DNA of 64,000 nt from a bacterium (GTDB taxonomy: Bacteria > Patescibacteriota > Saccharimonadia > UBA4664): the NCBI GenBank assembly GCA_016699105.1, contig CP064960.1, positions 968,729-1,032,728 of the forward strand, read 5' to 3'. The notes under the pieces were generated by a model. It saw only the letters and a program-made list of their open reading frames with translations. It ran no database searches and was not told the DNA's origin. Made by a program: the position numbers and the translations under genes. Positions within the stretch are counted from its first letter, which is position 1. Each line of letters begins with the position of its first letter. Positions 10,145 to 53,654 of this stretch are shown piece after piece.

Positions 10145-13100
10145 TCAAATCATCACTGGCATCCACTCGAAATGGTAAACGCAGTTTTTGCCCGCAGGTC
10201 CGCCAACCTGCAAATACATATCAACATCTCCAGGATGAGCGCCAATGATTTCTTTGAGGGCATGCAGCATGTCGTTTGAAGTCTGCTCAATGGCAAAGAT
10301 CACCTGGTGTGACTGTCTAACTGGCTTCGGTGCCAGGGCAGTAGCTTTGAGCGGAACGTGCTTTGAGGCTAAGTCATAATTGATAATCTTGGCGTTTTCG
10401 ACCATGATTTTGGGTTCGCCATTGAGGCTGCCGTCACGATCACGCGCAGAAATTTTACCGCTGACCATAATGATATTATCCGGTTCGTAGACTTCGGGTG
10501 ATGCGGCATAGGCTTTCGGGAAGACAACCAGCTCAGTTGATCCAGTTTTATCTTCGATGGCCACAAAAGCCATGGCATCGCCTTTTTGGTAAATATTTTG
10601 CGTACACCGGTGATGAGGCCACCGATACGAGCTAGTTTACCGTCAGCTTCGGGCGTGAGCCGGCCAATAGGTTGTGTAGTATCGGCGAGATAGGCGGCGT
10701 AATCATCGAGCGGATGGTGTGATAAGTACAAGCCCATGAGTTCTTTTTCCCAAGCCAATTGTTCACGCGTCGTTACGGGTGTGGGAGCTGGCTCGAGACG
10801 CAGGTCGGGAGCTGAGTGGCCATCACCGAGTGAACCAAAGATATCAATTTGACCAGACAGGGCATTTTTTTTGCGATTTGGCGGCATAGCTAGTTATGAG
10901 CTCGAGGTTATGTAGTAATGTCGCACGGTCAACGCCGCCAATTGAGTCGAAAGCACCGCATTTAGCCAATGACTCCCAGACTTTACGGTTCACTTCCCGC
11001 GCACTGACTCGGGTAGCGAAATCTTGAATATCTTTGAATGGTCCACCTTCAGCCCGGGCTCGCAAAATGGCTTCAATGGGCGCTGTACCAATGTTTTGAT
11101 GGCCGACAGACCAAACCGGATGTCGCCGGTGTCGGGCACCACTGCAAATTCCAAAAACGACTGATTGACGTCGGGTGGCAAGACGGTTATACCCATATGC
11201 TGGCACTCTGCCACTTCAATGGCGATGCGATCAATGTTGCCAAAATCGCTCGTGAGGAGTGCAGCCATATAAGCGCTGGGATAGTTAGCCTTCAGGTACG
11301 CAGTTTGATAAGCAATTAACCCGTAACAGGCCGAATGCGATTTGTTGAAACAATAATCAGCGAAGGCCTCGAGCTGGTGCCAAAAATTTTCGGCAAAAGC
11401 CTGTTTGACCCCGATTGGGACACCATACCCTCGATGAATAAGCCTTGCATCTTGGCCATGGTTTCACGCTGTTTTTACCGATGGCTTTGCGCAAGGTGTC
11501 GGCTTGGCCGCCCGTAAAGCCGCACATATCTTTACTGATCTGCATGAATTGCTCTTGGTAGACCAAGATACCATACGTGTTTCCTAGGGCAGCTTCCATA
11601 CCCGAGTGTTCATAGGTAACTTCTTTGCGGCCATGTTTGCGATCAATGAAGTCATCGATAAATTGCATTGGACCAGGCCGGTATAGTGCAACCATGGCTA
11701 TGATGTCATCAAACTGACTGGGTTTGAGTTCACGTAAATACCGCTTCATGCCAGCTGACTCCAGCTGGAAGACACCAGTCGTATCGCCAGCGGCCAGTAA
11801 ATTATAGGTTTTGGTGTCGTCGAGCGGCAGCGTGCCAATATCAATCGATTGTTTATAGACTTTTTTAATGATGCGCAGGGCATTGTTAATAATCGTGAGA
11901 TTTGATAGACCCAGGAAATCCATCTTGAGCAAACCGAGTTCTTCGACGGCCCCCATAGCGTATTGGGTACAGGGAATGCCTTTTTGAGCGCGTTGTAATG
12001 GCAGATAATTTACGATTGGCGCCGGGGCGATGACGACACCAGCAGCGTGCACCCCGTTATTGCGAATCGTGCCTTCAAGTTGGATTGCCAGGTTAATAAG
12101 GGTTTTGGCACGAGAGTTGGTTTGATATTCTTTGGATAAATCGGGGTCGGCTGGCACTTTTCCTTCTTTGATGCCAACCGATACCGCCAGTGGTGTATGG
12201 CGACCTTGAATGGGTTGTGGGATAAGTTTAGCTATCCGGTCGACCTCATCGTAGGAATAACCTAAGACACGACCAGTGTCACGTACCGCGTTGCGGGCGG
12301 CCATCGTACCAAAGGTAATGATCTGAGCGACTCGGTCTTGACCATATTTCTCGGTCACATAATCAATCACTTCACCCCGGCGGGTGTCTTGAATATCAAT
12401 GTCAATATCAGGCATGCTGATGCGGTCGGGATTGAGAAATCGTTCAAAGAGTAAGTCGTATTTGATGGGATCCAAATCGGTGATATTGAGCACAAAAGCC
12501 ACGATTGAACCGGCCGCACTCCCCCGTCCGGGACCGAAGATGATACCTTGATTTTTACCCCAGTTAATGAAGTCGGCCACGATGAGGAAATAGCCGTCAT
12601 ATCCCATATTGGCAATGACGCCGAGTTCGTATTCGAGCCGCTGAGCAATCGTCGTTTCAACTAATTTACGGGCACGATCTTGGGAGATTGTGCCGACATC
12701 TTCTTTGGGAATACCGCCGTAGCGATAAGCTAAACCCTGCCAACATAGTTTGTGCAAGTAATCTCGTTCACTCAAATCTTTGTCAGGCACTGGAAATGTC
12801 GGTATCAATATCTTGCCAAGATCTAGCTCAACTTGACAGCGCTCGGCAATATTGACCGTGTTTGCCAAAGCCTCAGGAATATGATTAAACCTATCGGCAA
12901 TTTCATCTGGGCTGGCAATGTATAAGTGCATACTCATCGACATACGGCTTTTGTCTTCGAGCATTTTTCCGGTTTGGACACAAAGTAAGGTTTCGTGGGC
13001 GTCACGGTTTTCAGGTCGCGAATAGTGAGAATCGGCCGTTATGACAGTGGGTATACCGGTCTGGCGTGACAGTTGGATGAGACCGTCGTTAATTGTTTTT

Positions 13101-13654
13101 TGAGTTGCCCGTTCATGCTCGTGCGCTTGGAGTTCTAAATAATAGTTGCCGCGCCCAAATGTGGTGTCGTACCAGGTAGCGATGCGTTCGGCTTCAGGCA
13201 AATTGCCATCAACTATGTGGGTAGCCACTTCGCCGCCAGCACAGGCTGACAAGGCAATAAGCCCCTCGTGATATTGCTCGAGGAGTTGATGGTCAATCCG
13301 CGGTTTGCCGTAAAATCCTTCCAGCTGACTGATACTGATGAGTTTGACTAAATTGTGATAGCCCGCAGTCGTTTCGGCGAGTAATACGAGGTGAAATGGG
13401 TTGAGATCTTGGCGGCCTGCTTTATCTAAATGACTTCGGGGAGCGACATAGGTTTCTACGCCAATAATTGGTTTGACGCCCATTTTGTGAGCGGTTTTAT
13501 AAAATTCGACGACGCCTGAAAGTGTTCCATGGTCAGTAAGGGCCACTGCACCCATACCCAATTCTTGGACACGTTCCAGCATGCCGGGTACTTTTTGCAA
13601 GCCGTCGAGCAACGAATAATGACTATGGTTATGTAAATGGACAAAACCACTCAT
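10145..13654 (-). CDS. dnaE: DNA polymerase III alpha subunit DnaE (at least five apparent frameshifts)
   Basis: PHP domain start MSGFVHLHNHSHYSLLDGL and polymerase core (11357-13654). The rest of the C-terminal half (fingers subdomain) is spread over pieces at 10990-11268, 10844-11206, 10369-10887 and 10145-10573. Junctions are at about 11474 (A run), 11429 (G run), 11095 (A run), 10868 (8-nt A run) and 10586 (A run). Confidence 0.9.
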
Positions 13655-36668: not shown

Positions 36669-36794
36669 AGCAGATGTGAGTGGTAATGAATATTGACTAT
36701 TTTATATTTTTGTAGTATTATATATCGGACCTTGGTGCAACCTTCAGATATGCAGCCATGTAGTCACCCTACAACTTGGGACAGGAGTATCCCC

Positions 36795-37418
36795 GTGACT
36801 CGTCGGATATTCAGAACGATCGCCATGGCGATCGGAGCAGTAGTACTGGCCGTTACGTTGGCTGGTTGCCCGTTCGTTGACAGCAAGGTCGCCAACCTCA
36901 AAGGCTTGATGCAGGGCCGGTCAGCCACCGTCACCACGTACAACGTGTTCGGACAAAAGCTCGACCGGATCCACGGTGTTTCGGTGGACATCCAGCGTGA
37001 AAAGGCCTTCGACTCGAAGAACGAAGACGGATCCACCAACAAGGATTCGTCGGTTGTGTCAGTCAGTGTGGGTGCGAACGTGATGACGCACGTCGGCTCG
37101 ACGCTACTCATGGCCGAGGACGGACTTGTCGACGTCAGCGCAGCACTGCCCAAAACCGTCGACCTGAACAACTTTGACCATGGAACTCCCTTCCTCAACT
37201 ACCTGCGCCAGACATACTCGAATTACTGGCAGGGCAAGGCGAGGACAATCGTGGTGCGGTCGCAGAACGGCTCTCCCATTGCCATCTACGCGGGCAACAA
37301 GGTGGAGTACTTTGCCACCAACGTGCCCAAGAGCACGCTCTTGTTGATCGACGATAAGTACCTGCTGATCTATCGCAGCGAGTACACCATCTACGATAAC
37401 GCGCTCTTGCGATCGTAG
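36795..37418 (+). CDS. Hypothetical lipoprotein
   Basis: GTG start with RBS ggacaggag. The n-region RRIFR, an h-region and lipobox LAGC point to a lipoprotein. Mature part about 185 aa. GC-rich. Confidence 0.5.
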   Translation: MTRRIFRTIAMAIGAVVLAVTLAGCPFVDSKVANLKGLMQGRSATVTTYNVFGQKLDRIHGVSVDIQREKAFDSKNEDGSTNKDSSVVSVSVGANVMTHVGSTLLMAEDGLVDVSAALPKTVDLNNFDHGTPFLNYLRQTYSNYWQGKARTIVVRSQNGSPIAIYAGNKVEYFATNVPKSTLLLIDDKYLLIYRSEYTIYDNALLRS

Positions 37419-37431
37419 ACCGCAATTTCAC

Positions 37432-37524
37432 CACCCGGTGAACACCCGGTCTCGGCTTCATTGTCGAGACCGGACCCGGCCCGGACGTTCAACTATGTTG
37501 TTGAGCTGCCAGGTCGGGTTTTTA
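37432..37524 (+). repeat. 90-bp structured repeat, copy 1
   Basis: cacccggtgaacacccggtctcgg...cgagaccggacccggcccggacgttcaac...gttgagctgccaggtcgggttttt. It lies 13 nt after a stop codon. Contains a 9-bp GC-rich hairpin and ends in a G-rich segment plus T tract. Confidence 0.8.
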
Positions 37525-37621
37525 GATAGTAATAGATTGACTAATTACATTTATTGTAGTATACTTATACCGTTCACCCTAGACTCCGAGCAAATTGCTC
37601 ACCGACCGAAGGGCTATCGTG

Positions 37622-38089
37622 ATGACCACTGACACCCCCGACCAGACCCCGCAGACCGCTCGTCCGCGGCGATCCGCTCTCTACCGCCTCGTACGGTTCA
37701 TGCTGATCGCAGCGGTCCTTGAGATGGCGATCTACCTGCAGGCCAAGCATGGCGCTGACCAGCAGGCCATCATCGATCGTGGCCTCAAGGGGCTGCAGCA
37801 GTACTCCGAGGAGGCAGTCCAGGCCAAGCGGAACCAGAACCTCTGGTCCAGCTTCGTCTTCACGTCCTTCTTCATCTGGTTCGCCGTGGGCATGGTGCGC
37901 ATCGCCTGGGCGACCATCTCGAGCATCAGCTCGTCTCGCAAGTCGGCGGCTCAGCCCGGTGCCCCAGTCGCAGCGGCGCCGAACACCACGAGCGAGCCGT
38001 TCGCTTCGAGCATTCCGCCCCTCTTCGGTACCCGGCCGTCGGATGGCGGCACCGGCGCATTGTACCGGAGCGGTATGGAAGACATCTAG
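37622..38089 (+). CDS. Hypothetical membrane protein (about 65% GC), bracketed by the 90-bp repeat pair
   Basis: 155 aa from MTTDTPDQ, with two TM helices and a Pro/Ala/Ser-rich tail. Confidence 0.5.
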   Translation: MTTDTPDQTPQTARPRRSALYRLVRFMLIAAVLEMAIYLQAKHGADQQAIIDRGLKGLQQYSEEAVQAKRNQNLWSSFVFTSFFIWFAVGMVRIAWATISSISSSRKSAAQPGAPVAAAPNTTSEPFASSIPPLFGTRPSDGGTGALYRSGMEDI

Positions 38090-38092
38090 TTC

Positions 38093-38183
38093 TACCCGGT
38101 GAACACCCGGTCTCGGCATCTTTGTCGAGACCGGACCCGGCCCGGACGTTCAACTTAATTGTTGAGCTGCCAGGTCGGGTTTT
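38093..38183 (+). repeat. 90-bp structured repeat, copy 2
   Basis: About 90% identical to copy 1. All differences fall in the two loop regions (gcttcattgt versus gcatctttgt; ctatgtt versus cttaatt); the stems are conserved. It lies 3 nt after a stop codon. Confidence 0.8.
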
Positions 38184-38611: not shown

Positions 38612-38931
38612 CGACGCTGAGTGCGGGTTGGCCTTGCTGTGGGCGGGACGGTGAAGTCGGGCACGGAGCCTCCGGGACGTGGGATTGGGTTTATGCAGGT
38701 GCGATGGAGATCAATGAGATCAAGCTACATTATATCATAATTATAATGCTTTGTCCATCTAAATTACGTGGCAGCGAGAAATGATTATCGACGTTATCGT
38801 TCGCAACCTGAATACTCAAATTACTTTAAGTGCTCGGGTGGAGATCTAGTTCTTGGCATGGAACTAGCAAGCATGGCGGGAGCCTTTGGGTCCCGGCGGA
38901 GGAGTGGGCACTCTCGGTGCCTAATAGACAG

Positions 38932-39594
38932 TTACTGCGAGACCACAGCCGACTTCATCGCCGCGGCGAAGGCCCGGTTGGCAGCCAGCAGGTTGGGTGC
39001 ATCCACGGTGAGGCGGGTGAACGGACTCTCATCAACGAAGATGTGATCGGTGGCAATGACAGCATCATCCGTTACCCGTACTTCGGCGGGAAAGCCATGG
39101 CCAGGGATATCGTGGAAGATGCGCACCCGATCGACGAGGCCGGCGAGTGCAGTAGGCTCCGTATTCAGACAGCCGTCCACAGGCTCGGTGGTAATGCCGA
39201 TCCCCGAAGCGTGTAAGCGGAAGCCTCCACGACTAATCTGCGGACGAGCACCAGGCGGGCCGATGAAACCCTTAAATCCATCCCCGATAGATACAGCCAT
39301 CGGATTCTCTTTATTGTCGATATTGAGAACCAGCACAGTGTACATAGGGTGTACCGTCCTTTCAGGACGAGAGGAGTTTTCGGATCATTACTGGTAGAAA
39401 ATGGTGAAATTTTCGACCGCATAAACCGGGATTTGGTAACTTCCCCCGCCCGTAATCGAAACGAGGTAGTACAGTTTGAATCGCTGAATCGAGAGAATGG
39501 GCACTTTGTAGAGGTAGTCGGGTTTACCGACCTCATACCGACGACCATAGCGGCTATCGGTGATGCTGACATAATGCGGCACGCCGATCATCAT
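38932..39594 (-). CDS. Hypothetical protein (one apparent frameshift)
   Basis: Two overlapping ORF-track pieces (39388-39594 and 38932-39345) point to one gene of about 220 aa. No family recognised. Confidence 0.3.
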
Positions 39595-39746
39595 GCCTCC
39601 AGAGGCGTATGGTGCTGAGTGTGTGGGGTGCTCCAGGCATCAAAAAGATTATGGATAATATTATTATACTATGTAATTGTGTAATTTGCAATTATCATGT
39701 AGTAATGAATGACAACAGCCGGCTTGCATCGCTGCAAACCGGCTGT

Positions 39747-40520: not shown

Positions 40521-40575
40521 TCCAGGTCGAGTAGAGAGTGGATGAGCCGGTTATAGCATGTCTGATAGAAATAAG

Positions 40576-41022
40576 CTACTCGCCTGGCTCATTGAGTTTG
40601 TGCCGATACTCAGCGCGCGTGGCCCAGGCTACTAATTCCTCAATCTCTTGGGGCGACTCCGGATAGAACAATGGCAAGCCCTTAGCCAATGCCCAGGCCC
40701 GCTCGCGCTTGGCGCCGCTGGAGGTATGCCAGCGGGGCGTGAAGAGCACGGCGTCGGCTGCGTTGAGAAAATGAAAATCTAGGGCGTGATAAAAAGTCTC
40801 GTCGGCTTGGGCTTTGGTGCCAAAGTGGTGGGTGTGCAGATGCGGGCAAAAGAAGCCGATGCCGGCGTTGGCAAGGGCTATGGCGTAAGCCTCGGCGTCG
40901 CGGATGTTGGCCTCGATGGTCTCGATTTTGCCATCGCCAATGTAGGGCCCGGCGATGAAGACGATTTTCATCGGGCGAGAGCCGAGGGGTGCCCAGGGGG
41001 TGGTATCTGGAGGGGTGGTCAT
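40576..41022 (-). CDS. DUF4406-family protein (nucleoside 2-deoxyribosyltransferase-like fold)
   Basis: 149 aa from MTTPPDTT. MKIVFIAGPYIGDG is the DUF4406 N-terminal signature. Confidence 0.6.
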   Translation of the reverse strand: MTTPPDTTPWAPLGSRPMKIVFIAGPYIGDGKIETIEANIRDAEAYAIALANAGIGFFCPHLHTHHFGTKAQADETFYHALDFHFLNAADAVLFTPRWHTSSGAKRERAWALAKGLPLFYPESPQEIEELVAWATRAEYRHKLNEPGE

Positions 41023-41040
41023 GGGCAGATTGTAGCAGAT
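40905..41040. repeat. 137-bp direct repeat, copy A (DUF4406 5' end and upstream)
   Basis: Identical to 42130-42268 apart from G-run length differences. Confidence 0.8.
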
Positions 41041-41056
41041 AGCGCCATATTCAGAA

Positions 41057-42087
41057 CTACCCCCGCGGCTTTTTGGACTTGCTTTGTTGGCTAATTGCCT
41101 GCTCAAAGTCACCAACATACTCCAGGTCTTGCTGCGTGCGGAACTCGCTGTATTCCTGAATGGCCTTAGCGTCTGCCTGGGCCTTCGAGATTTTGCCGGC
41201 ATGTTTGAGCTTGGGATAATCATTCAACTCCAGGTAGCCGTCCATGATGCTGAGCCATTGAGCCATGGTTATGGGTAACCGACGGCTAGCACGGAGTTCA
41301 GCAGTATCCAGAAATGCCGACACCGCCAGCCGCAGGTGGTGGAGTTCAGCCTCGGTGAGGTAGTTTTTAGCGACGGTTACATCGGTACGCAGTACTTTGC
41401 CATCCGGTGCGAACTTCCAATTGGTTAGGCCCATGTGCGGTTTGGCGCTGCTGGACCGGTCATGTACGATTTCGGCTGCCGTGCCGCCGGCGACGGCGTA
41501 GTGAAGCTTGTTTTGGATGAAGGCAAAAAACTCTTTGGTCAGCTCGTTGGTTTTGTCATAGTCACTTGCAAGGGCAAAAATATCAGCGAGTTTGAGATAG
41601 ATACGGCGTTCACTGAGCCGGATCTCACGGACGCGCTCCAGGAGCTCGTCAAAGTAGTCTTTGCCAAAATGGGTGCCGTTTTTCAGGCGCTCATCGTCCA
41701 TAGCGAAGCCCTTAATGAGAAAATCGCGCAGAGTGACGGTGGCCCATTTACGGAACTGGGTACCTTCGAGAGATTTTACCCGATAGCCAACGGATATTAT
41801 TACGTCCAAATTGTAATAATTGGTGTCATACTGCTTGCCGTCGGCGGCAGTTGTCCGGAAATTCGGATTACTGCCGACTTATCGAGCTCACCTTCATCAA
41901 AAAGATTTCCGATATGCTCGCTGATGGTTTTCTTAGAGCGATTAAACAGCGCAGCCATTTTGTCTTGCGTGAGCCAGACAGTTTCGTCAGCGAAGAAGAC
42001 CTCGAGCTGAAGCTTGCCATCCGGGGCGGTATAAAACAGAAATTCGCCTTCGTGCGGGGCTAGCTGATTGTTGGTAGGCTTTCGCAT
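41057..42087 (-). CDS. RhuM-family virulence/defence-island protein (one apparent frameshift)
   Basis: N-terminal part ...ETVWLTQDKMAALFNRSKKTISEHIGNLFDEGEL, then (shift at about 41860, A run) DVIISVGYRVKSLEGTQFRKWATVTLRDFLIKGFAMDDERL. Confidence 0.8.
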
Positions 42088-42129
42088 ATTTCAATTATGC
42101 CGAACGGTTACCGTACATGCAAGACAATC

Positions 42130-42268
42130 TGTTGGCCTCGATGGTCTCGATTTTGCCATCGCCAATGTAGGGCCCGGCGATGAAGACGATTTTCATCGGG
42201 CGAGAGCCGAGGGGTGCCCAGGGGGGTGGTATCTGGAGGAGGGTGGTCATGGGCAGATTGTAGCAGAT
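42130..42268. repeat. 137-bp direct repeat, copy B (includes a truncated second copy of the DUF4406 start)
   Basis: Encodes MTTLLQIPPPWAPLGSRPMKIVFIAGPYIGDGKIETIEAN, then diverges. Confidence 0.8.
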
Positions 42269-42287
42269 TGGCTTATCTGGGGCTAAG

Positions 42288-42989
42288 TTAGCCGTGCCGC
42301 AACTCAAGCCGATCTTTGATTTCACGCCAACCCGGCAACTTTTGGTCGAGCAATGCTTTAAACTCGGACCCGTGGTTCTTAATAGTGAGATGACACAGCT
42401 CATGCACCATAACGTACTCGATCGCAGACTTATCTGACTCAATTAGTCGCGGGTTGACCACCACGTTTCCGGCGTTTGTGAAGCTACCCCATCGTTTCTG
42501 CATCTCTTTTACGATCAAACGAGGAGGCTCCACGCCATCGAAGTATCTTAGTGCTTTTGCGTAAACTTCACGAAATACGAAGTTGCGGCGATTTCTGTAC
42601 CAGCCTTCGATCAGCATTTTCGTATACTCGGGCATTTGTGCGCCCATTGATGTCGATACCCTAATCTTTCCTTTGAGTAGGCCGACGGAGTCCGTTTTGC
42701 CAGCTTCAACAATCAGTTCGTATTGCCGCCCGAGATACATGAGGCTTTCGCCTGAAACATACGATCTCTCGTAGCGCTTTTTGTGATACCGATCAAACAT
42801 CCGAAGCTGTTTATCGAGCCACCGCCACTTACTCTCAAGAAATTTTGTAATGCGCTCCTCGCCAGCATCATGAGGAGCCCTTAGTGTGATGGCTTGATCT
42901 GGCTCCACCGTAAGCCGGAGACTCTTCCGCGGCTCGTAAATGAGCTCGTACGAATATTCATACTGCCCATAACGAAAGACCCGTTTCAT
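42288..42989 (-). CDS. YgjP/DUF45 (SprT-like) metal-dependent hydrolase
   Basis: 233-aa ORF with HExxH (MVHELCHL). It is coupled to the 3' end of hsdR by a 4-nt overlap, its usual genomic context. Confidence 0.75.
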   Translation of the reverse strand: MKRVFRYGQYEYSYELIYEPRKSLRLTVEPDQAITLRAPHDAGEERITKFLESKWRWLDKQLRMFDRYHKKRYERSYVSGESLMYLGRQYELIVEAGKTDSVGLLKGKIRVSTSMGAQMPEYTKMLIEGWYRNRRNFVFREVYAKALRYFDGVEPPRLIVKEMQKRWGSFTNAGNVVVNPRLIESDKSAIEYVMVHELCHLTIKNHGSEFKALLDQKLPGWREIKDRLELRHG

Positions 42990-45900
42990 AGTTGGATGAA
43001 CACGTCGTGGTTGTTCTCTGCAAGTATCATGACATCGGTAATGATTGTTTCAATTTGGTCGTAGCTCAGGTCAATGCCCATCTTGCCCTTTACCTCGTCG
43101 TACAGATAGTCATCGAGAAGGCTGCGCATTTGGCGTTTGGTTTCATGGCTGTGCCACCAGTCAACTGTCGCGCTTTGCTGAACCATTTCGTTCATGCCTA
43201 GCACGGCCTGCTGATAAATTGCAGGACTAGATGCCCAGACCCCGAGAGTTGTTTCCAGGTTGCGGTAGAGAATGTCGGCACCCGGTTTGGCGGTAACTTC
43301 TGCTGGCAGCGAGTCGTCGCGCTTGCTCAGTACCGTATCACTTATGAGTCGCAGCTGTTTGAGCGCCTCGATGTCGGCGAGCTTTTTCTGGCGCATCTCT
43401 TCAATAATCTTTGAGATCTTTTTCGAGAATCTAGCATAGAACTCAGGATCGGTAGATAGCCGCTCGGTAATTGTCTTTTGGGTTTGGGCCGCAATAGCTT
43501 CAGCTTTCGACTTGTCAGACCCAAGCTCTGCAATAGCCTTCTCGAAGAGTTCTTTGTCCGTAATATCGATTTGTTCAGTGAGGAGCTCGGCTTCATCGGC
43601 CTTGATATTGTCATCCATAATCTTGATGAGCGCCAATTTGTAAGGCCGGAGATCGGTTTGGTCGGCGTAACGCAGATTAGCCGATTTACGTAGCTCGAGA
43701 AACTTTTTGCATTCGTCACGATACATATGCAGATGCGGGAATTTGGTCGCAAAATCCTGGAGCGTCATCGACTCGCCAAATAGCCGGATGAACTCGTTGA
43801 GAGCAAAAACGAATTGCTTACGCGTTGGCTCATCAGCCAAGAATTGTAGGTATGCCTCGTCGTCGTGAGCCACACCGTTAAATAGGTCGTGGAGCGCGGC
43901 GTAGGCTGACTCGAGTTCAATAATCTTGTCGCCGACATCGACCAATGCACCCTTTACGTCATTTTCATCGTAATTGCCAAACAACTGCATGGCCGTATGA
44001 ATGTTTTGGGCGTTCTCTGAGTAGTCGATGATAAACCCTGCCGTCTTGGGCAAGGTAGGGTTGTCATAGAGGCGGTTCACGCGAGCGATGGCTTGAAGCA
44101 AGTTATGATCGGTTAGCTCACGAGCCAGATACAGCACCGTATTACGCGGAGCGTCAAAACCGGTGAGGAGCTTATCAACCACGATCAGGATTTCGATACC
44201 GTCATCGTTATACTTGAAGCTATCCACGACATCCTTCTCATACGAAAGCAGGCTCTGATATTTCTCTTTAACGTCCTTGAGATAGTCGTCGACTTCTTTC
44301 TTGTGGTCGTCGCCTTCGTTGATGATGCCATTTTCATCCGAGATGACGAGCGCCGTATTGATGAGGCCGCTATCAGTAAAGAACTTCTGCATCATGACGG
44401 CCGAGAACTTTGACGGTGCCACGATCTGAGCCTTGAGGCCGGAGCCCTGTAGCTTATCAATGTAATGGCGTTGGATATCAAAGGCGATCTCGACGATGCG
44501 CTTCGGGTTATCTTTGATGACCCCCTGAGCTACTTGCTTCTGAAGCTGCCTCTTCTTTTCTTCAGATAACCCGGCGGTTAGGCGGTCAACGAGCCGGTCA
44601 ATTTCTTCTTTATCCTGCTTCAAATCAACATACCTGCCCTCATAGATAAGCGGCAAGATGATCTTGTCTTCCAGGGCATCGTCGATAGTGTACTTATCGA
44701 TGAAGTCACCGAACTTGCCACGTGAGCGCTCATTTTTGAGGAGCGGCGTTCCGGTAAAGGCGATGTAGCAGGCATTCGGTATCACGAGGTTCATTTCGCT
44801 GTTGGCGTCGCCGCCCTGGGAACGGTGAGCCTCATCAATGAGTACAAAGATGTTCTCGTCTGGGTCCTTAAACCCGGCGCGCTTGCGAGCGGCGGTCTGA
44901 AATTTATGCACGAGCGTCGTAACTATGCGTTTGTCTTTGAATTGAATGAGATCGAGCAGGTGTTCACCGCTCGTTGCCTGAATCACATCTTTCTTGAGGC
45001 CGGCATTATTGAACGTGCCCTTGATCTGACGGTCGAGATCTTTCCGATCGGTCACGATGATGATGCGGGGGTTCGTGATAGTACTGTCTTCAATGAGTGC
45101 CCGCACAAACATCACCATGGTCAGTGATTTGCCCGAACCTTGAGTATGCCAGACAATACCGCCCTGGCGGCGCTCCCTATTTCCAGCTGCTCAGTTTGCT
45201 TGATGCGCCGCAGAATTTTATGGATCGCAAAGTACTGCTGGTAGCGCATCACTTTCTTGGTGCCAGCATCATAAAGGATGTAGTTCTTGGCGATATCGAG
45301 CAGGCGGGCCTTGTCGAACATCGCGACAACGCTGCGGTCCTGGGCGGTTACTTCCCGCTCAAGTTTTTGGGTATAACCGAGTACCGATCCGTTGAGATCG
45401 GCCAGGAGATCAGAGTATGTGCTGGCCGGGATTGGTTGCGACATAAGCGCCCGCACGCGTCCATCCAGAACGCTATTCGGTGTATCCTTCTCGCGCCAGG
45501 TGGCGTAGAACTTGGCCGGGGTTCCGGTGGTGCCGTAGCGCATGTCTTTCCCGTTGGTGGCGATGAGCAATTGCGTGTAGATAAATAACCGCGGGCAGCG
45601 GTCGACGCTTTGGTTCCGAACCTGCTGATTCATAGCTTCATCAACTTCGACACTGGATTTTTTGTTCTCGATGATCACAAATGGTATGCCGTTCACAAAG
45701 CACACGATGTCGGGCCGAATGTTGCCCTTGCCGCTGGCAGGGTACTCAACGGTGACATGGAATTCGTTATTTTCTGGCATGTCAAAATCGATGAACCGGA
45801 AACTTTTGGATTCATACTTGCCGTCGAGCAACATCTTAATGGTGCGTCCGCCGCGAGTTGGCATGACGGTGTGATAGACGGTTTTTGAAGTGTCGACCAG

Positions 45901-46164
45901 GCCTTCAAACTGAAGATTTTCCAGCTCGTCGATGGCGTCATTGATATCTTTGTCGCTAAACTGGTGGAGCGCATCGGCGTGTTCGTAGCGATTGATCTTC
46001 ATGAGCGCGCGGGCGGCGATGTCTTTGAGAATGAAGTTTGAGGTATCATCGCCACGCTGACGGAGGGCCTCGCCGACCGGGATGTAGTTATAACCGAGGT
46101 TGATGAGCAGCTCGACGAATGGCAGCTGGGATTGCTTGGCCTCGTCGAAATTGATGTCATGCAT
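42986..46164 (-). CDS. hsdR: Type I restriction enzyme R subunit (one apparent frameshift)
   Basis: N-terminal nuclease-like domain (45121-46164, true start MHDINFDEAKQ) and SF2 helicase body (42986-45118, TGTPLL, VLIDEAHRSQ). They are separated by a missing A at about 45180 (expected ...EQLENRERRQGGIVWHTQGSGKSLTMVMF). Confidence 0.9.
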
Positions 46165-47387
46165 GGGTGGGTTCCTTTGCGAGAGGCTTGAGGGTTTCGG
46201 GCACGCGGATTTTGCCAGTGACGAGGTTGTTGAGGAGGTATTTACGCTGAGTTTTGATGATGGCGAGCTTGCGCTCGAGGGTGGTAATTTCGTCATCAAC
46301 GGCAGTCAGAATTTGGGCGATTGCAATTTGCTCTTCGGGTTCGAGGGGAACATAAACATCTGCATCAAAGAAATCAACCGCACTTATATTCAGCAAGCCG
46401 TGGTTTCGCGCCCCTTCCTGTGTAACCGTGGATAAAACCTTGTTGAACAGACCCTGCTCAAAGTAGTGCTGAAGGTAGTCTGATTCAATTCGGGTCGGTG
46501 TAAACGCTAAATAGAGTGTTGATACCGCTCCTTTTTTGTACGCGTTTAGTCTTTTTATAGCACCCATCGGGTAGCCTTTTGAATAACTCTTATTGTAAGC
46601 GAACTCGCCATTGTGCAAGAGCAAATAGCCTGACAGGTCAATGGCGGCTATGCGTTTAGAAAAATATTCCCCTTGTGCAACCAATCCATCTTGTGCCGAT
46701 ATAGTGAGCGCATTCTGGTTTAACTCGCTGTTTTTTCTATTGATTCTCGTACAAACCTCACCCAGTTTCAGGCTCCCCCAGTTTGACCGAAACCCTGGTA
46801 GCCTTATTGCCCCCGTAAGCAGCCCTTCCGCTAGACCATCTTTTAACCGCCTTTTTACTCTGATCGTCACCTGCGACACATTAATTAACTTGTCGCAAGT
46901 CTCTAGCATTGCGACTATACGCTGTTGTACGGGTATAGGTGGAGTCAGAATTTGTAAATCCTTGATCGATTGCAAAAGAGATTTTTATTGTTGAACCAGT
47001 GAGTTCATCAAGCAATCTGGCCCTAGTCTGATCGCATAAAAGAAAATAGTATAAGTATTTTCTTTCTAGGTCGTCTGCACAGTTGATATATGCAGCGCTT
47101 TTCCCGAGTACAATTTGTTCGCCATTGTAAAGCGCAAGACTACCAATCGTGCCATTGATTGACATCAGAATGGTAGAGCCATCAAGGAGCTTCTTATGTT
47201 TTTCGTATTCATTGAGATCAACCTCCTTTGTGCTCCGGCTAATTCGTATCTCTCCGTCAACCAAATTATTGCCGTTGATGAAGAAAATGCCCGTACCGGT
47301 GCTATATTTTGGCGTGCCATGAATACCATCACTAATCTTAGTCGTGATGTCCTTAAGCTTCCACAACCGGTTGGTGTCATTTGCCAT
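46157..47387 (-). CDS. hsdS: Type I R-M specificity subunit (one apparent frameshift)
   Basis: TRD1 (46881-47387) and conserved repeat/TRD2 (46157-46975; ...LQILTPPIPVQQRIVAMLE..., C-terminal ...PLEPEEQIAIAQIL...). The junction is at about 46975 (T run). It overlaps the hsdR start by 8 nt. Confidence 0.85.
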
Positions 47388-47829
47388 CTTTGTCTCGTTT
47401 TTCTACGGCAGTTTTGGCATCATCGGGCAAAGCGTCATATAACGCCTCGATTTCTTTAGGCTCGGTAATTAGTTTTTGAGCGATAAAATTTATCAGGCTG
47501 AATAACGCTACTACCTTAGCTGGATCCTCATCTAAATTGATCTCGCCCGGGTGAACGGCGTTATTGCCCGTAATACGCAGCGCGTCCAATGCCTTCTGAA
47601 TAGTCGGGCTTAGTCCGGCATTCACAAGTTCTGCAATATCATCATTGATGTTCTTGCCTTTCTGTCCAAGTTGAACACAGAGCTTTTGGAGCCCTAGACG
47701 CAATAATGCGGCGGCTGCACGAGGCGAGTCGGCCAGTACCTGAGCGGCTTCATTGTAATCAGCCTGAATATCGGGGTTCAGGTCTCCATTCGGCTGGTCA
47801 ACCGTAATGCTTCGAGGCAAAACTAACAC
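47377..47829 (-). CDS. DUF4145 domain protein (RM-associated)
   Basis: 150-aa ORF with a DUF4145 pattern (RAAAALLRLGLQKLCVQLG). It overlaps the hsdS start. Confidence 0.65.
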   Translation of the reverse strand: MLVLPRSITVDQPNGDLNPDIQADYNEAAQVLADSPRAAAALLRLGLQKLCVQLGQKGKNINDDIAELVNAGLSPTIQKALDALRITGNNAVHPGEINLDEDPAKVVALFSLINFIAQKLITEPKEIEALYDALPDDAKTAVEKRDKDGK

Positions 47830-48075
47830 CTCATTTAGCCAAATACAGTAACCACTACAGTGCTCACACTTTGAAAACTACATATTGTTCAGGAAGTAAT
47901 TCGCTAAACTCGCTTGACCCATAAATATTTGATCGGGTGCCCCTGTGAGGTCTTGAGTAGCCATCAGATGAAGCCGTAAGGTGGGACCAAAATTGCTTTG
48001 CAAAGACCCCGCATACGCCACAGTGGAACGCAGCGACGCTAAAGCCGGGGGCTATATATTCATTTCTCGCCATGG

Positions 48076-48879
48076 CTACTCCCCCAACGATTCTTCTTGA
48101 TTTTGCTTCTTAATACGAGTCTTCGCCTTATTTATGCCATCGGCAACAGGCAAATTCTCGGGCATAGTGCCGCCCAGTTGGTCGATGGTTTGGCGAACTT
48201 TTTGGCCGACTTCGTAGTGGGCAAGGTTTGCCTCGGCTTCGCCCTGAATGCCCTCGCGCTTGAGCTTGGCGTCGGCCTGAGTGGCGCGAAAGAGGTTGGC
48301 AGCCAGTTCTTCGCTACCCATATGGTCGAGAATTCCTTGGGATTTTTTGAGCTGCTTCTTCTTATGGATTTGTTGGGCGGTCATCTTATATAGGCCTTTA
48401 TAACCAGCATTCTGGAAAGTGCCAAAGTTTGATACTCCAGCCTTTTTGGCAGAACTCGCAAGTGAGGCGTTGTGTACCGAAATTTCATCTCGAAGCACTA
48501 CTCGCTTGCCGTCTTCGACGAGAGTATCACTGTCTTCTTGACGCTTGGTTTGGATAGCGAAGTAGGTTTGACCGAGCGCTACCACCTCTTTAGTCGGGTC
48601 GGAGTTCTGTATTATCAAATAGCAGGCGTAGCGACTAAGTTTTACGTCATCGATCTCGCGCTGTGCGCCCGAGCCAAGGACTACCATTTCGAGAATATCC
48701 TCGAAATGGTCGTGGACAACTTGACCACTGTTTTTGGCGGACTCTTTGGCTTTCGTGATTACTGGCAAGAAGTGACGGTATTCGGAGTAGCCAAGAACCT
48801 TACATAAATCTCGCGCCATCCAGTATTCGGCTTGGCTATAATCGACCAGCTTAATTTCTTCAAATACCGTGATGTTCAC
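48076..48879 (-). CDS. dinD: DNA damage-inducible protein D-like
   Basis: 267-aa ORF with strong similarity to the DinD N-terminal region (FEEIK...YWMARDLCKVLGYSEYRHFLPVITKAKESAKNSGQVVHDHFEDILEMVVLGSGAQREIDDVKLSRYACYLIIQN). Confidence 0.75.
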   Translation of the reverse strand: MNITVFEEIKLVDYSQAEYWMARDLCKVLGYSEYRHFLPVITKAKESAKNSGQVVHDHFEDILEMVVLGSGAQREIDDVKLSRYACYLIIQNSDPTKEVVALGQTYFAIQTKRQEDSDTLVEDGKRVVLRDEISVHNASLASSAKKAGVSNFGTFQNAGYKGLYKMTAQQIHKKKQLKKSQGILDHMGSEELAANLFRATQADAKLKREGIQGEAEANLAHYEVGQKVRQTIDQLGGTMPENLPVADGINKAKTRIKKQNQEESLGE

Positions 48880-49073
48880 TGCCTACCCCCTAACTGTATG
48901 CTTAATGTACCGATTGTGGCTCTGTATAGCGCTGATACCATTTCGAGGAGATGCTCGAAATGGTTGTGGAAAACTATCTTAACCGCATCGAAATCGATGC
49001 GGTTACTAGATACTAATTTCATGAGTATAGCAACGTGCAATTCTTGCATGTTACTCGTCTCGTACGGATTCAT
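48876..49073 (-). CDS. Small ORF containing a diverged partial duplicate of a dinD internal segment
   Basis: 65 aa, overlapping hsdM and dinD by 4 nt each. HFEHLLEMV matches dinD HFEDILEMV, and the DNA segments are about 80% identical over about 45 nt. Confidence 0.35.
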   Translation of the reverse strand: MNPYETSNMQELHVAILMKLVSSNRIDFDAVKIVFHNHFEHLLEMVSALYRATIGTLSIQLGGRQ

Positions 49074-50584
49074 GATTTAATCCCCAACTGCTTCAAATAA
49101 TCGTCCATCTGGGCTTCCAGACGGGCTAGCTCGGGCTTGAGGGCTTCGAGCTCTTTGATGGTGGCCTGGATGTCGATTTCGGCTTCTTCCACAAAGGTGT
49201 CAACGTAGCGGGTGATGTTGAGGTTGAAGTCGTTTTCCTGGATTTCGTCGAAGGTGGCGACATGGGCGAATTTGTCGACGTCCTTGCGCTCTTTGAAGGT
49301 ATTGAAGATAGTGTCGATGTGCTCAGGCTCGAGGGTGTTGCGGGCTTTGCCGGGTTTGAAGAGCTTGGAGGCTTCAATGAATAGCACATCCTTTTTGTCG
49401 TGGTTGGCACCACCAACTTCGCGGGAGCGGTCGATTACCAAAATAGCGACAGGGATGCCAGTGGTCTGGAATAGGCCGGCCGGTAGCCCAATGACAGCAT
49501 CGATGATGTTTTCGCGCAAGAAGGCTTCACGGATTTTACCTTCCACGCCGCCCCGGAAGAGCACACCGTGTGGAACAATGACTGCAATGCGGCCGGTCTT
49601 GGGCTTGGCGGTTTCCACCATGTGCGTCACGAAAGCGTAGTCACCTTTGTCCTTGGGCGGGATGCCACGCCAGAAGCGCTTGTACCGGTCGTCTTCGGCA
49701 TTTTCGGCACCCCATTTCTTGAGCGAGAAGGGCGGATTGGCCACACAGATATCAAACTTCATGAGGCGATCATTTTCGACGAAGAGCGGATTGTTGAGAG
49801 TGTCGCCCCATTCCAGGTGTGCGGAGTCTTTGCCGTGGAGGAACATGTTCATGCGAGCCAGCTGGTAGGTGCTGCCGGTTGATTCCTGGCCATAGAGGGC
49901 ATAGTTATTGGAGCCCTGCTTTTCGACTTCGGCGCCAGCGAGCAGCAAGAGGCCGCCACTACCGACGGCCGGATCGCAAATGCGGTCGCCAGGTTTGGGC
50001 TGAGCCAACCGTGCCACCAATGACGCCACGCTTTTGATCGTGAAGAACTCACCAGCCTTCTTGCCGGCGTCGGCGCCGAACTTATCAATGAGGTACATGT
50101 ACGAGTTGCCAATGACGTCTTCATTGATGTGGGCGAGATCAATGGAGTTGAAGTCGTCGAGCAAATGGCGGAGCATCTTGTTTCGCTGCTCGAGCCTGCC
50201 GAGCGTGGACTCAGAGTTGAAGTCGACGCTGAAGACGCCTTCAAGCTTGGCTTTGTTAATATCCTCGATGCGGTGCAGGGCCTTGTTGATTTCTTCGCCG
50301 ATGTTGTCTTCATCTTTCTTGGCGTAGACGTAGTCAAAGGTGGCTTCTTCTGGCAAGTAAAACCGCTCGGTTTTCATCTTGTTGGCAATGCGCTCGGTGT
50401 CGCCGCCGAAGCGATCTTTGTAAACCTCATACTGCTTTTTTGACAGATCACTGAGGTATTTAAAGAACAACATCGTGAGCACGTAGTCTTTGTAGATACC
50501 GGCATCGAGGGAGGTGCGGGACGAGTCGGCCGCATTCCAGAGTATGTTATTGAGCTCTTCTTGGGTGTAGGTTCTGGCGGTCAT
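49070..50584 (-). CDS. hsdM: Type I R-M N6-adenine DNA methyltransferase subunit
   Basis: 504-aa intact ORF with an HsdM N-terminal domain, SAM motif and catalytic NPPF (ANPPFSLKKWG). Confidence 0.92.
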   Translation of the reverse strand: MTARTYTQEELNNILWNAADSSRTSLDAGIYKDYVLTMLFFKYLSDLSKKQYEVYKDRFGGDTERIANKMKTERFYLPEEATFDYVYAKKDEDNIGEEINKALHRIEDINKAKLEGVFSVDFNSESTLGRLEQRNKMLRHLLDDFNSIDLAHINEDVIGNSYMYLIDKFGADAGKKAGEFFTIKSVASLVARLAQPKPGDRICDPAVGSGGLLLLAGAEVEKQGSNNYALYGQESTGSTYQLARMNMFLHGKDSAHLEWGDTLNNPLFVENDRLMKFDICVANPPFSLKKWGAENAEDDRYKRFWRGIPPKDKGDYAFVTHMVETAKPKTGRIAVIVPHGVLFRGGVEGKIREAFLRENIIDAVIGLPAGLFQTTGIPVAILVIDRSREVGGANHDKKDVLFIEASKLFKPGKARNTLEPEHIDTIFNTFKERKDVDKFAHVATFDEIQENDFNLNITRYVDTFVEEAEIDIQATIKELEALKPELARLEAQMDDYLKQLGIKS

Positions 50585-51150
50585 TTGATGGCTCCTTCGA
50601 TTGCGGTGAGCGATTGGTTAAGTATTGATTGGCTGAGAGCGGTTTTTCGTTCAAGGATGGCTCGTTGGCGCATCAAGTTTTGGTGTAGCGCGACGTAGAG
50701 CGCTTGGCGGTCGAGCGGAATATCGGGAACCGGGAGCTGGCGGAGAGTATCAATGAGGAGGGTCTTGATGGATGAGCCGGTAGAGTTTTGGGCGAAGTAG
50801 GCTTGGGCGGCGGGACTATTAAGATGTATTGCCAAATACTCTGGTAAAAGACGGCTCTCATCGGGTTTCATTATGTAGAGCGATGAGCTGGCAATTATCG
50901 GCTCGTCGCAGTTTAACGCGGCGGCACGAAAGCTACCGCGAGCTGCGAGTAAGACAACCATGCCGGTTTCTGGTGCTGTGCGGTAGTCTGCGCCCGTTAC
51001 CCGCGGAAGGCTCTCTAGTTCGACGCCGACGGCCGTCACATCTTTTGATTGGGCTACGCGAACATCTCCAGCAGGGTCATGAAGCACCGGGCCACGGAAG
51101 GTGTAGCCGGATTGGAGCTTGAGTATGAGTTCGTGTAGCTGCGTGGTCAT
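50581..51150 (-). CDS. HsdS-like single-TRD half subunit
   Basis: 189-aa ORF: one target-recognition domain plus the conserved HsdS repeat (SSIKTLLIDTLRQLPVPDIPLDRQ). 4-nt overlap with the hsdM start. Confidence 0.6.
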   Translation of the reverse strand: MTTQLHELILKLQSGYTFRGPVLHDPAGDVRVAQSKDVTAVGVELESLPRVTGADYRTAPETGMVVLLAARGSFRAAALNCDEPIIASSSLYIMKPDESRLLPEYLAIHLNSPAAQAYFAQNSTGSSIKTLLIDTLRQLPVPDIPLDRQALYVALHQNLMRQRAILERKTALSQSILNQSLTAIEGAIK

Positions 51151-51224
51151 ACAAGGAATGTATCACACTATTTGTACATTTGCAACTGCGCACTGACTGC
51201 TACTGTAGCATATCTACTGGATAT

Positions 51225-51425
51225 CTATGACTTCCACTTACCAAACCGCTTCATCACCCATTGGATTGTCGGCAGGATGTAGTAAACGTCGTCTGAATTC
51301 CGAATGTCAAATCGACTTACCGGTGTATTGTAATGCTCGAAGCTATTAGGCATGTAGGTAATGCGGCCGTCGGGATCCATAATATCGACGTCCTCAGGGC
51401 GAATGCTCGGGATTTCAATTGTCAT
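51225..51425 (-). CDS. Small hypothetical protein (66 aa), translationally coupled to the upstream nuclease gene
   Basis: 4-nt overlap with the 51422-52179 gene. No family recognised. Confidence 0.4.
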   Translation of the reverse strand: MTIEIPSIRPEDVDIMDPDGRITYMPNSFEHYNTPVSRFDIRNSDDVYYILPTIQWVMKRFGKWKS

Positions 51426-52179
51426 TTTTGGTTATGCGGCTTGATATAGATGACCGTACTAGCGCCATTCTCGCCAAGAGCTAAACCGATGTGACCCGAG
51501 CGCGGGTTTTCCTTGATGCGCTCATCGATCATCATGAGGCGGTCGCACAGTTCTTCGTAGATTGGCAGCCATTCAGCTTTGGCGCCGGTGAAGTGATCGG
51601 CGACGGTGTACTTTTTGACCTCTTTACTAACCTCATTGATGGTCTGGCTTTTCTTGGAAATCGTGTTGATCGACTCGCTAGAATCCGGGGTTTTGAGGCG
51701 ATTAAACAGTACTGTGTCGTTGCTGTAATATTTGGCTTCCCAGAGCTCCATCGGCAGATCGCGGAAGTTGATGGCTTGCTGTTGGTAGGTGGTGAAGGAA
51801 TTAGCCACAAAGATTACCCGCGACTGCGACCAATCAACGTCGGTTTTGCCGAGGTGCTTGGACATGTGCTCGTTGTATTCAAGGATGAAATCGGCTTTAT
51901 GGTTGAGCATGAGCGAAAGGTAGGCGTAGCCCTGATCAACCACGCTAAAGCTGTGATCGCGCTTGTACTCAATGATTACAAAGGCTTTGGCCTCGGCATC
52001 GAAGGCCAGCGTGTCGACGCGTAGGCCGTTGAGCTGGAATTCGGTGGTCACAAATATAAGGCCAAAGACAGCTTCAAGATTGGCTTCGGCGAGGCGCTGG
52101 AGATCGCTTTCCTTGTACGATTTGGGATTGAGCTCGTTGATGGAGGTGAGCTTGTTCTGGTGGCGGAGAAGATTGGCAT
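51422..52179 (-). CDS. HsdR_N-like PD-(D/E)xK nuclease-domain protein (one apparent frameshift near the start)
   Basis: About 252 aa. ...SDLQRLAEANLEAVFGLIFVTTEFQLNGLRVDTLAFDAEAKAFVIIEYKRD matches the HSDR_N/Mrr-cat D...(D/E)xK pattern. The C-terminal domain is unrecognised. The start atgcca(a)atc lacks an A at about 52173. Confidence 0.55.
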
Positions 52180-52220
52180 GATACAGCGTATTTTACGCTC
52201 GACTTCAGGTCGAGGCTAGC

Positions 52221-52814
52221 TTATATTTTCTCGGCGAGCTTCCGAATTGGCTGCAGTTTGGCCTTACTCCCCTCATCAAGCATCGCAAACTCAATGTACC
52301 TGATCTTGTTCATTGTTGCTTCTTCACCCACTACACTATCAAGGATCAGGAAGCCTAGCCCAGCATATCGCTCCTTGGCCGCATCATCATAATCTGGAAT
52401 ATATATGACAATGTCTAAATGCTCATTGTCTCGCTCACTTGTGAAATACACATCCTCAACCAACATATTGTGGCCGTCATAGGTAAAAGAATCTGTTGAG
52501 ATGGGCGGCTTGAAGGCCGTGATTTTCCAGCCAGGAATGCTTGGAGCCGCCGCCACCATCTCGCGTACTCGGTCGGCATATGTCCGAACCCCGTCACACG
52601 ATACAAAGAACTCGCGCGCACCCTCTCCTAGCGGGCCGATAAGGAAGCACAGGTATTTGTCCGTTTTATCAAATTGCTTTGCGAGTAGCCCAATCAGCCG
52701 ATCCTGATCATTCTCTAGCTGGCTGTATTCATCCGCATGCTGCGCGAACCAAGTCCAAAATTCCGCATAAGTCATAGCGCGGCGTTTAAATATATTCATG
52801 AGAACATCATACAT
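52221..52814 (-). CDS. Hypothetical protein (possibly DUF695-like)
   Basis: 197-aa intact ORF immediately downstream of the Fic gene. Confidence 0.3.
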   Translation of the reverse strand: MYDVLMNIFKRRAMTYAEFWTWFAQHADEYSQLENDQDRLIGLLAKQFDKTDKYLCFLIGPLGEGAREFFVSCDGVRTYADRVREMVAAAPSIPGWKITAFKPPISTDSFTYDGHNMLVEDVYFTSERDNEHLDIVIYIPDYDDAAKERYAGLGFLILDSVVGEEATMNKIRYIEFAMLDEGSKAKLQPIRKLAEKI

Positions 52815-52961
52815 GAGACACTAGCCTCAACGGAGCCCCCACATACCAAACCCACCAACCACCAAATTACATCTCATCTCCGGCGACGGGTTGTGGGCAA
52901 AGAAGGCGCGGCAGGTGACGCCCGACGACACGCACATACAGGTGGACGCGCTCAGAATTCG

Positions 52962-53654
52962 CTAGCGCCCAATCTTCCAAACCCCCTTCTCCCGGAAGGC
53001 CGGGATGGTTTGGCGGCGGGCGGCGTTGAGCAGGGTGCTGGTTGACTGGTCAGTGGATTTTGCATAGTCGGCTAGGTCGATAATTTCGAGCCCTTTGAGA
53101 TATGCCAGGCGCTTGTGCAGAGACTCTATCAAGGCCAACGAGAGGGTGCGGTCAAGTAGTGTTGTTTTGCGGTCATCCTGGTAGGCCTGGAAGGCCGGGT
53201 AGTAGTGGTCGGCTTTGCCCTTATTGCGAATGATGAGCTGGGGATAGCCGAGCTTGGTGAGCTGGAGATTGATGAGCACGCGGCCAATCCGGCCGTTGCC
53301 ATCGCAGAAGGGGTGGATTCGCTCAAACTCAAGGTGAAAGATTGAAATGCGCTCAAGGAAGTATCGGGTATGCTCAGAGTCGTAGTCGGTGATGGCGCTT
53401 TCGATGAGCTGCTCGACGTGTTCGGGAGCCGGCGCGATGTGCGAACCTACCCGAACGTACTCGTGCTGTTTGCGGAAACGACCGGCAATTGCGTCGTCGA
53501 TGCCGCCAATCTGCATTTGGTGCAACAGGAGCATGTTCTCGGGGTTAAACTCGATGTCAGGTTTGCTGGCAAGGTATTCCGACACGCGAGCTAAGTTTTT
53601 AGCCTCGTATAGCTCCCGCGTAGACACGCTCCGCATAACTTGCTGCTCAAGCAA
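52962..53654 (-). CDS. Fic/Doc-family protein
   Basis: Fic motif HPFCDGNGRIGR. Confidence 0.85.
   Translation of the reverse strand: MLEQQVMRSVSTRELYEAKNLARVSEYLASKPDIEFNPENMLLLHQMQIGGIDDAIAGRFRKQHEYVRVGSHIAPAPEHVEQLIESAITDYDSEHTRYFLERISIFHLEFERIHPFCDGNGRIGRVLINLQLTKLGYPQLIIRNKGKADHYYPAFQAYQDDRKTTLLDRTLSLALIESLHKRLAYLKGLEIIDLADYAKSTDQSTSTLLNAARRQTIPAFREKGVWKIGR

Follow-up and report, generated by a model that had tools for sequence, protein, structure and literature searches.

RhuM between two direct copies of a DUF4406 gene start: a strain-polymorphic duplication at a type I restriction-modification island of a Saccharimonadia bacterium

Introduction

How does a single gene come to lie between two direct copies of the first 136 nucleotides of its neighbor? 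This question is raised by a type I restriction-modification (R-M) island in a bacterium of the GTDB lineage Bacteria; Patescibacteriota; Saccharimonadia; UBA4664 (GenBank assembly GCA_016699105.1), in which the candidate defense gene RhuM is enclosed by a truncated and a complete start of the adjacent DUF4406 gene. The stretch of DNA that was analyzed, referred to here as the window, comprises 64,000 nucleotides of contig CP064960.1 (positions 968,729 to 1,032,728 of the forward strand). A sequence-only reading of the window had attributed the structure to insertion of a RhuM cassette by homologous or site-specific recombination, or else to an assembly artifact at a repeat.

Organization of the locus

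All genes of the locus are located on the minus strand and follow one another, along transcription, in the order hsdM, Bro-N, PD-T7-4 (DUF4145), hsdS, hsdR, YgjP, R2, RhuM, R1, and DUF4406, where R1 and R2 designate the two copies of the repeat, R (Table 1). The products of hsdM, hsdS, and hsdR together constitute a type I R-M system, and all three genes are intact in L001, a near-identical short-read contig. The protein records of the window, obtained by exact protein look-up, are QQR52100-QQR52165, and the nearest named homologs of both the DUF4406 and the RhuM proteins come from Patescibacteria and Saccharibacteria. A tRNA scan of the window detected none, and Rfam gave no match over 36.5-43 kb.

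Table 1. Coordinates of the features of the RhuM locus, given as positions in the window.
Feature	Position	Strand	Description
DUF4406/DUF1937/DUF7768 gene, intact	40576..41022	-	148 aa, QQR52148.1
R1 (repeat copy 1)	40905..41040	-	136 nt; continuous with the intact DUF4406/DUF1937 gene
Extended -10-like box (TGnTAYAAT), TGCTACAAT	41029..41037	-	6 nt ahead of the DUF4406 ATG
Unique RhuM unit	41041..42129	-	1089 bp: 42 nt of upstream sequence, RhuM CDS, and 16-nt tail
RhuM CDS	41057..42087	-	Pfam PF13310; PADLOC candidate PDC-S05
Weak promoter-like sequence of the RhuM unit	42094..42122	-	TTGCAT, 17 nt, CATAAT, 6 nt to ATG; read by eye
RhuM upstream region			GATTGTCTTGCATGTACGG
Truncated ORF from R2	42095..42250	-	39 DUF4406 codons and 11 new ones (50 codons)
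R2 (repeat copy 2)	42130..42268	-	139 nt in the window, 136 nt in other assemblies
YgjP-like (M48/SprT-like) metallopeptidase gene	42288..42989	-	Last gene in the type I R-M operon
hsdR	42986..46299	-	Two ORFs in the window through an indel; intact (1059 aa) in L001
hsdS (broken), DUF4145/PD-T7-4, Bro-N/PDC-S13, hsdM	46157..50584	-	Rest of the type I R-M and defense operon
hsdM	49070-50584	-	First in order along transcription

The RhuM fragment in the window matches PF13310 with E=1e-95 over profile positions 26-249 of 252, and the intact protein (P0001, 343 aa) matches PDC-S05 with E=5.6e-137. In the window, RhuM is divided into two ORFs (41800-42087 and 41057-41809) with one G missing at 41864; this G is present in contigs L007, L009, L010, and L023, in which the gene is intact and encodes 343 aa, and the frameshift is probably a sequencing error. 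The promoter-like sequence ahead of RhuM fell below the threshold of the consensus promoter scan and was not reported by it. Inspection by eye of its 17-nt spacer (window 42100-42116) also showed a 5-bp inverted repeat, ACGGT-A-ACCGT, as a possible operator.

The DUF4406 gene product scores above or at the cut-off of three related profiles, namely, DUF7768 (29.4 bits, cut-off 26), DUF1937 (25.4, cut-off 23), and DUF4406 (22.0, cut-off 22), and carries the NCBI name DUF1937 family protein. Its clan is nucleoside 2-deoxyribosyltransferase-like. The sole match of the protein to solved structures was Rcl, which was not significant (E=0.62), and an exact look-up of the N-terminally extended 178-aa ORF returned no record.

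The repeat pair and the quality of the window sequence

The two direct copies are present exactly where the sequence-only reading had placed them. R1 extends from -18 to +118 relative to the DUF4406 ATG at 41022, and its sequence is that of the single R copy at an empty site found in contig L002. R2 begins 20 nt downstream of the stop codon of the YgjP-like gene and corresponds to a truncated DUF4406 start; the truncation is as had been claimed, and the fragment, previously placed downstream of RhuM, lies upstream of it in the sense of transcription, all genes being on the minus strand. The ORF remnant in R2 terminates with a TAA codon (42097-42095) 7 nt ahead of the RhuM ATG. A 27-mer of R, which is expected 0.00 times in the window, was seen twice (once exactly and once with one mismatch). 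Throughout the 64 kb, the long direct repeats consist of the R pair and a 90-nt pair at 37433/38094, with no others.

Comparison with L001, which covers window positions 42238-52984, revealed seven indels in 10.7 kb, six of which are one-base changes in homopolymer run length. The indels relative to L001 split hsdR, hsdS, and the DUF4145 gene in the window, each of which is intact in that contig. DnaE (11357-13654) measures 765 aa in the window versus 1187 aa in its cluster mates. The apparent pseudogenes in this genome (hsdR, hsdS, RhuM, and DnaE) are probably sequencing errors, and broken genes and repeat "differences" in it should be met with caution, as they probably reflect such errors rather than biology.

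The same applies to the repeat copies, which had been described as identical except for the lengths of G runs. Their near-identity holds, the sole differences in the window being a 1-nt indel (G5 versus G6) and a 2-nt indel. These indels, however, are probably sequencing errors, because the copy beside YgjP carries the copy-1 sequence in five independent short-read contigs (L002, L005, L007, L009, and, as far as the contig reaches, L001) and because the window is rich in homopolymer indels. Both R copies of L007 measure 136/136 nt. Given the probable errors in the window, the actual repeat is probably perfect and 136 nt long; the duplication thus stands, and the length first ascribed to it (137 bp) is replaced by the 136 nt of the independent short-read contigs.

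Filled and empty alleles in other samples

The polymorphic unit consists of the unique RhuM unit plus one R and spans 1225 bp. The RhuM unit is present in L007, L009, L010, and L023 and missing from L002. Samples in which the locus is found include SRR32548942, ERZ23795167, ERZ27275549, and DRR830129. Besides the window itself, at least three samples contain filled sites. One of these is represented by L007, a contig with a SPAdes-style name (NODE_..._cov) that is 99.0% identical to window 44323-40905 from end to end and contains YgjP, R, intact RhuM, and R on a single contig. From a third sample comes L009, which begins in hsdR, passes through YgjP, R2, and RhuM, and covers 53 nt of R1 before ending. 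L010 corresponds precisely to the RhuM unit framed by short stretches of R, which measure 30 nt on the upstream side and 29 nt on the downstream side. The Logan contigs L001, L003, L004, and L006 all end approximately 30 nt into R. Logan assemblies are built with what we take to be k=31, in which case contigs would be expected to break at this distance if R has two predecessors.

The empty allele is represented by L002, in which YgjP is followed by one 136-nt R and DUF4406; its first ~1680 nt match the window with 0 differences. Comparison with strains lacking RhuM, which had been put forward as a check, has thus yielded a precise empty site, with exactly one repeat between identical flanks, as is characteristic of repeat-mediated deletion. 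The name of this contig (k141_...) points to a k-mer exceeding the repeat in length, in which case single reads would carry the empty junction.

Given the filled sites in three or more additional samples and the precise empty site with identical flanks, the duplicated structure is real and strain-polymorphic and is neither an artifact nor a target-site duplication. To our knowledge, known bacterial target-site duplications are approximately 15 bp or shorter, and the earlier statement that the duplication is far too long for one is supported. An assembly artifact would require that one segment was wrongly doubled when two strain variants were merged, and the many indel errors in the window, together with the presence of both filled and empty alleles in metagenomes, would be compatible with such an event. 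Nevertheless, both novel junctions (R to the RhuM upstream sequence and the RhuM tail to R) are present in independent assemblies of other samples (L007, L009, and L010), and L007 and L009 join YgjP, R, RhuM, and R on single contigs, which leaves the artifact raised in the sequence-only reading extremely improbable.

The filled alleles reside on backgrounds that differ from the window by ~1% (L007) and ~5% (L009, a mosaic), and the flanks of L002 are identical to the window; this combination suggests that the filled state is the older one and that L002 represents a recent loss. The divergence is strongly mosaic in hsdR and YgjP (window 44000-44310 versus L007 and 42612-45012 versus L009), where tracts with 10-17 differences per 100 nt, mostly at multiples-of-three spacing reminiscent of third codon positions, alternate with near-identical tracts. 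Such mosaic divergence indicates that strains often exchange homologous DNA in the island.

An additional form was found in L023 (NCBI GCA_020050275.1, JAHZTE010880074.1, 1-1257), which carries, in order, the RhuM 3' end, R, and the RhuM 5' end; its last 105 nt have no match to the window. The junction in this contig is as expected of a circle or a tandem unit and could also be an assembly-graph cycle. No exact match to the 27-mer of R was found in JGI metagenomes, E. coli genomes gave no match, and viral contigs gave none to either R or the RhuM upstream region.

The DUF4406 module and its left boundary

Relatives of the DUF4406 gene adjoin differing restriction and defense genes, including another type I system that is flanked by LigA (L024, L025, and L026), an EcoR124-type hsdR (L030), an MmeI-type enzyme together with an OLD nuclease (L020), and an EcoRI-type methylase together with GmrSD (L021); L019 is too short to show its upstream neighbors. 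Nucleotide homology to the window in L019, L021, L024, and L030 begins at 41034-41039, only a few bases from the left end of R, and ends at 40572-40651, falling 75 nt short of the stop codon in L021 and reaching 4 nt beyond it in L030; the flanks of the module in these loci are unrelated on both sides. Among species-representative genomes, the sole DUF4406 relative is a 50% identical protein in a Jorgensenbacteria MAG, and a protein-level search of JGI metagenomes returned one distant relative.

The extended -10-like box ahead of the DUF4406 ATG has a second copy in R2 (~42257-42265). Extended -10 promoters need no -35 box. A TAnAAT core is found 6 nt before a conserved ATG in the window, L019, L021, L024, and L030, and is preceded by TG in the window, L024, and L030; L020 has TAAAAT and no ATG at that spacing. 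In addition, the N-terminal extension MTTPPDTTPW is conserved in relatives through synonymous changes. The consensus scan did not report the promoter-like box of the module. Leaderless starts were rejected as a general feature of the window, as a window-wide count gave only three long ORFs with TAnAAT-N5-8-ATG. These sequence features lead us to view the DUF4406 gene as a compact module with its own putative promoter and R as its first 136 nt.

A partial copy of the module is also present in L030, the only one of 12 related loci with such a duplication. It comprises 34 nt (874-907) and lies 60 nt after a different type I hsdR, and the full module starts at 3028-3061. Between the two lie ~2.1 kb with two small genes and a separate insertion sequence (IS) that carries an rve-type transposase and has inverted repeats at 1874-1902 and 2954-2982. 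The left boundary of this partial copy matches that of R (-18) within 1 nt, and its right end is located at +16 instead of +118. The recurrence of the -18 boundary in two independent events (window and L030) is the only unusual point of the locus.

Other features near the locus

The second long direct repeat of the window (37433-37522 and 38094-38183) consists of two 90-nt copies that are 94% identical and 661 nt apart. The copies begin 4-14 nt past the stop codons of plus-strand genes, namely, a DUF5052 gene (36693-37418) and a 164-aa ORF (37595-38089) for which no family was found, and a near-consensus TTGACT-17-TATACT promoter, followed by this 164-aa ORF, lies between them. The repeat is predicted to fold into three hairpins (-58 kcal/mol, z = -8) with a 3' end of GGGUUUU and has no Rfam match; by our own reading of both sequences, the substitutions that distinguish the copies are confined to hairpin loops. 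The pair may represent a structured 3' terminator element that occurs twice or, alternatively, another case of a gene enclosed by a long duplication.

Furthermore, an 892-bp segment at 38814-39705 is present in the window and missing from the otherwise collinear L002. Its junctions carry a 5-6-nt direct repeat, (T)ATTCA, resembling those of a small insertion with target duplication, and its ORFs have no family match. Beyond this segment, L002 is ~77% identical to the window (38813-38069).

Origin of the duplication

Several classes of mobile elements were considered and rejected as the source of the structure. A transposable element does not account for it, as the unit encodes RhuM alone, its ends carry no inverted repeats, and the duplication measures 136 nt here and 34 nt in L030. 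No recombinase or integrase was found among the ORFs scanned over ~39.7-51.2 kb or in the precomputed Pfam assignments of L001 genes to 53 kb, and no attC-like palindrome was found, on which grounds an integron cassette or other integrative element is likewise rejected. With respect to an att-type core, the left boundary is common to the two events within 1 nt and the right ends differ. RhuM does lie between duplicated DUF4406 starts and homologous recombination is involved, as the sequence-only reading suggested; the site-specific recombination that it offered as an alternative finds no support, given the lack of a recombinase gene among the scanned ORFs and the occurrence of R1 and R2 as different alleles in one strain.

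This strain is represented by L009, in which 3 of 53 nt of R1 are substituted relative to the window, matching the allele type of L019 and L030, whereas R2 and RhuM are near-identical to those of the window; these last 53 nt, which depend on a k=31 path, could combine sequence from different strains present together. As they stand, R1 and R2 of L009 are different alleles, which would be hard to obtain from in-place duplication.

RhuM could have been inserted in place with duplication of its target, the 136-bp copy being generated by a very long staggered break, by template switching during replication, or by a site-specific system acting at -18. The identity of R1 and R2 in the window and L007 would follow directly from such an event, as would the left boundary shared within 1 nt by the window and L030 if a fixed cleavage or recombination site were used. 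However, neither the unit nor the DNA beside it encodes a transposase or recombinase, the ends of the unit lack inverted repeats, and the lengths of the duplications differ (34 versus 136 nt). Simple in-place target duplication is further disfavored by the independent 34-nt copy with the same left end in L030 and by the different alleles in L009, so that this origin appears quite unlikely.

The reading that we favor, with somewhat better than even confidence, is that a single illegitimate junction brought two island haplotypes together and that RhuM is now lost or gained through homologous recombination between the resulting repeats. Haplotype 1 would have had the arrangement [type I R-M, YgjP | module] and haplotype 2 the arrangement [... 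RhuM | module], with only the module shared. The illegitimate junction would have fused the first module, at +118, to the sequence preceding RhuM, the other crossover being supplied by the homologous module, and the route may have been either one-sided homologous integration or break repair that copied from the donor. DUF4406 would stay intact in the outcome, with R1 and the rest of the gene making up a complete module and R2 left over as a truncated start. Under such a history, the common left boundary would represent an older limit of homology among haplotypes, near the minimal promoter; alternatively, it might reflect selection for a minimal promoter instead of shared history. The identity of R1 and R2 in the window and L007 counts against the two-haplotype origin, as in-place duplication would also produce it.

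As for the donor, protein identity to the nearest RhuM genes elsewhere is 78-80%, and these genes are embedded in type I operons of their own. Outside the coding region, no DNA is shared with the closest of these loci (L011-L018), and none of the collections searched contained a [... RhuM | module] haplotype lacking R2.

Once joined, the two 136-bp repeats could recombine homologously, which would delete the RhuM unit precisely and generate the empty allele, and re-insertion or amplification of the unit by the same recombination would be possible in principle. The promoter-like box and start codon of R2 might also direct transcription through the 50-codon remnant ORF into RhuM, adding to the weak putative promoter of RhuM itself.

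A Campbell-type cassette has also been considered, in which a 1225-bp circle (RhuM and one R) would form between the repeats, spread, for example, by DNA uptake, and enter an empty-site R by a single crossover. Both reciprocal products of such recombination have been seen, namely, the empty site in L002 and the RhuM-R-RhuM arrangement in L023, and the pattern of L009, with a window-type R2 and a hybrid R1, is consistent with crossing over close to the left end of R. This proposal accounts for the spread of RhuM but not for the first origin of an R-carrying circle, and it involves a 1.2-kb unit without replication or transfer functions. The contig L023, which ends in 105 nt of unrelated sequence, may be chimeric or an assembly-graph cycle, and a tandem duplication would yield the same junction. 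We regard a cassette of this type as unlikely.

Under the favored two-haplotype reading as well as in its subsequent behavior, the mechanism is ordinary recombination, and the locus exemplifies ordinary plasticity at the border of a defense island. A bolder proposal is that the -18 boundary of the module is a specific hotspot of recombination or cleavage and that the module is a mobile, self-promoted cassette with which small-genome bacteria, probably Patescibacteria, capture defense genes and stack them beside R-M systems without an encoded recombinase, each capture leaving a partial copy as its footprint; the 90-nt pair (37433-38183) could then be a second example. If true, it would provide a recombinase-free way to build defense islands, which the present evidence does not require, and we consider it decidedly unlikely.

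Comparison with known systems

The location of RhuM beside type I R-M genes is a known association (PMC9881135). The locus resembles type I loci that carry accessory defense genes (RhuM/PDC-S05, Bro-N/PDC-S13, DUF4145/PD-T7-4, and Fic), and the closest RhuM homologs are found inside type I operons as well. Unlike in those loci, RhuM here follows hsdR and YgjP rather than lying between hsdM and hsdS, is flanked by a 136-bp duplication of the start of a neighboring gene, and is present or absent among near-identical strains.

Integrative elements that insert at gene ends, such as those at tRNA genes with their attL and attR sites, similarly leave a partial gene copy at one end and the intact gene at the other, with one boundary fixed at the natural end of a gene unit and a carried copy of variable length (34 versus 136 nt in the present case). 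In contrast to these elements, the present case involves no integrase, an insert of just one gene (1.1 kb), and a 5' end including the promoter as the target.

Homology-facilitated illegitimate recombination, a one-sided integration of foreign DNA reportedly described by de Vries and Wackernagel in 2002 for naturally transformable bacteria, offers another parallel, in that the DUF4406 module is the only homology and the other junction has none. That process usually deletes or replaces recipient DNA, whereas here a junction inside the anchor would leave a duplication. On the features tested, the RhuM structure resembles both gene-end element duplications and homology-facilitated illegitimate recombination and is a member of neither.

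The behavior of the unit is also comparable to deletion, amplification, or "pop-out" between direct repeats, since the empty allele retains one repeat with identical flanks and a contig with the RhuM-R-RhuM junction exists; nothing about this is unusual, and such recombination is expected for 136-bp repeats that are 1.1 kb apart. With public data supplying the filled form, the empty form, and possibly a circular or tandem one, the locus provides a clean natural example of the gain and loss of a single candidate defense gene at the R-M island of an uncultured small-genome bacterium.
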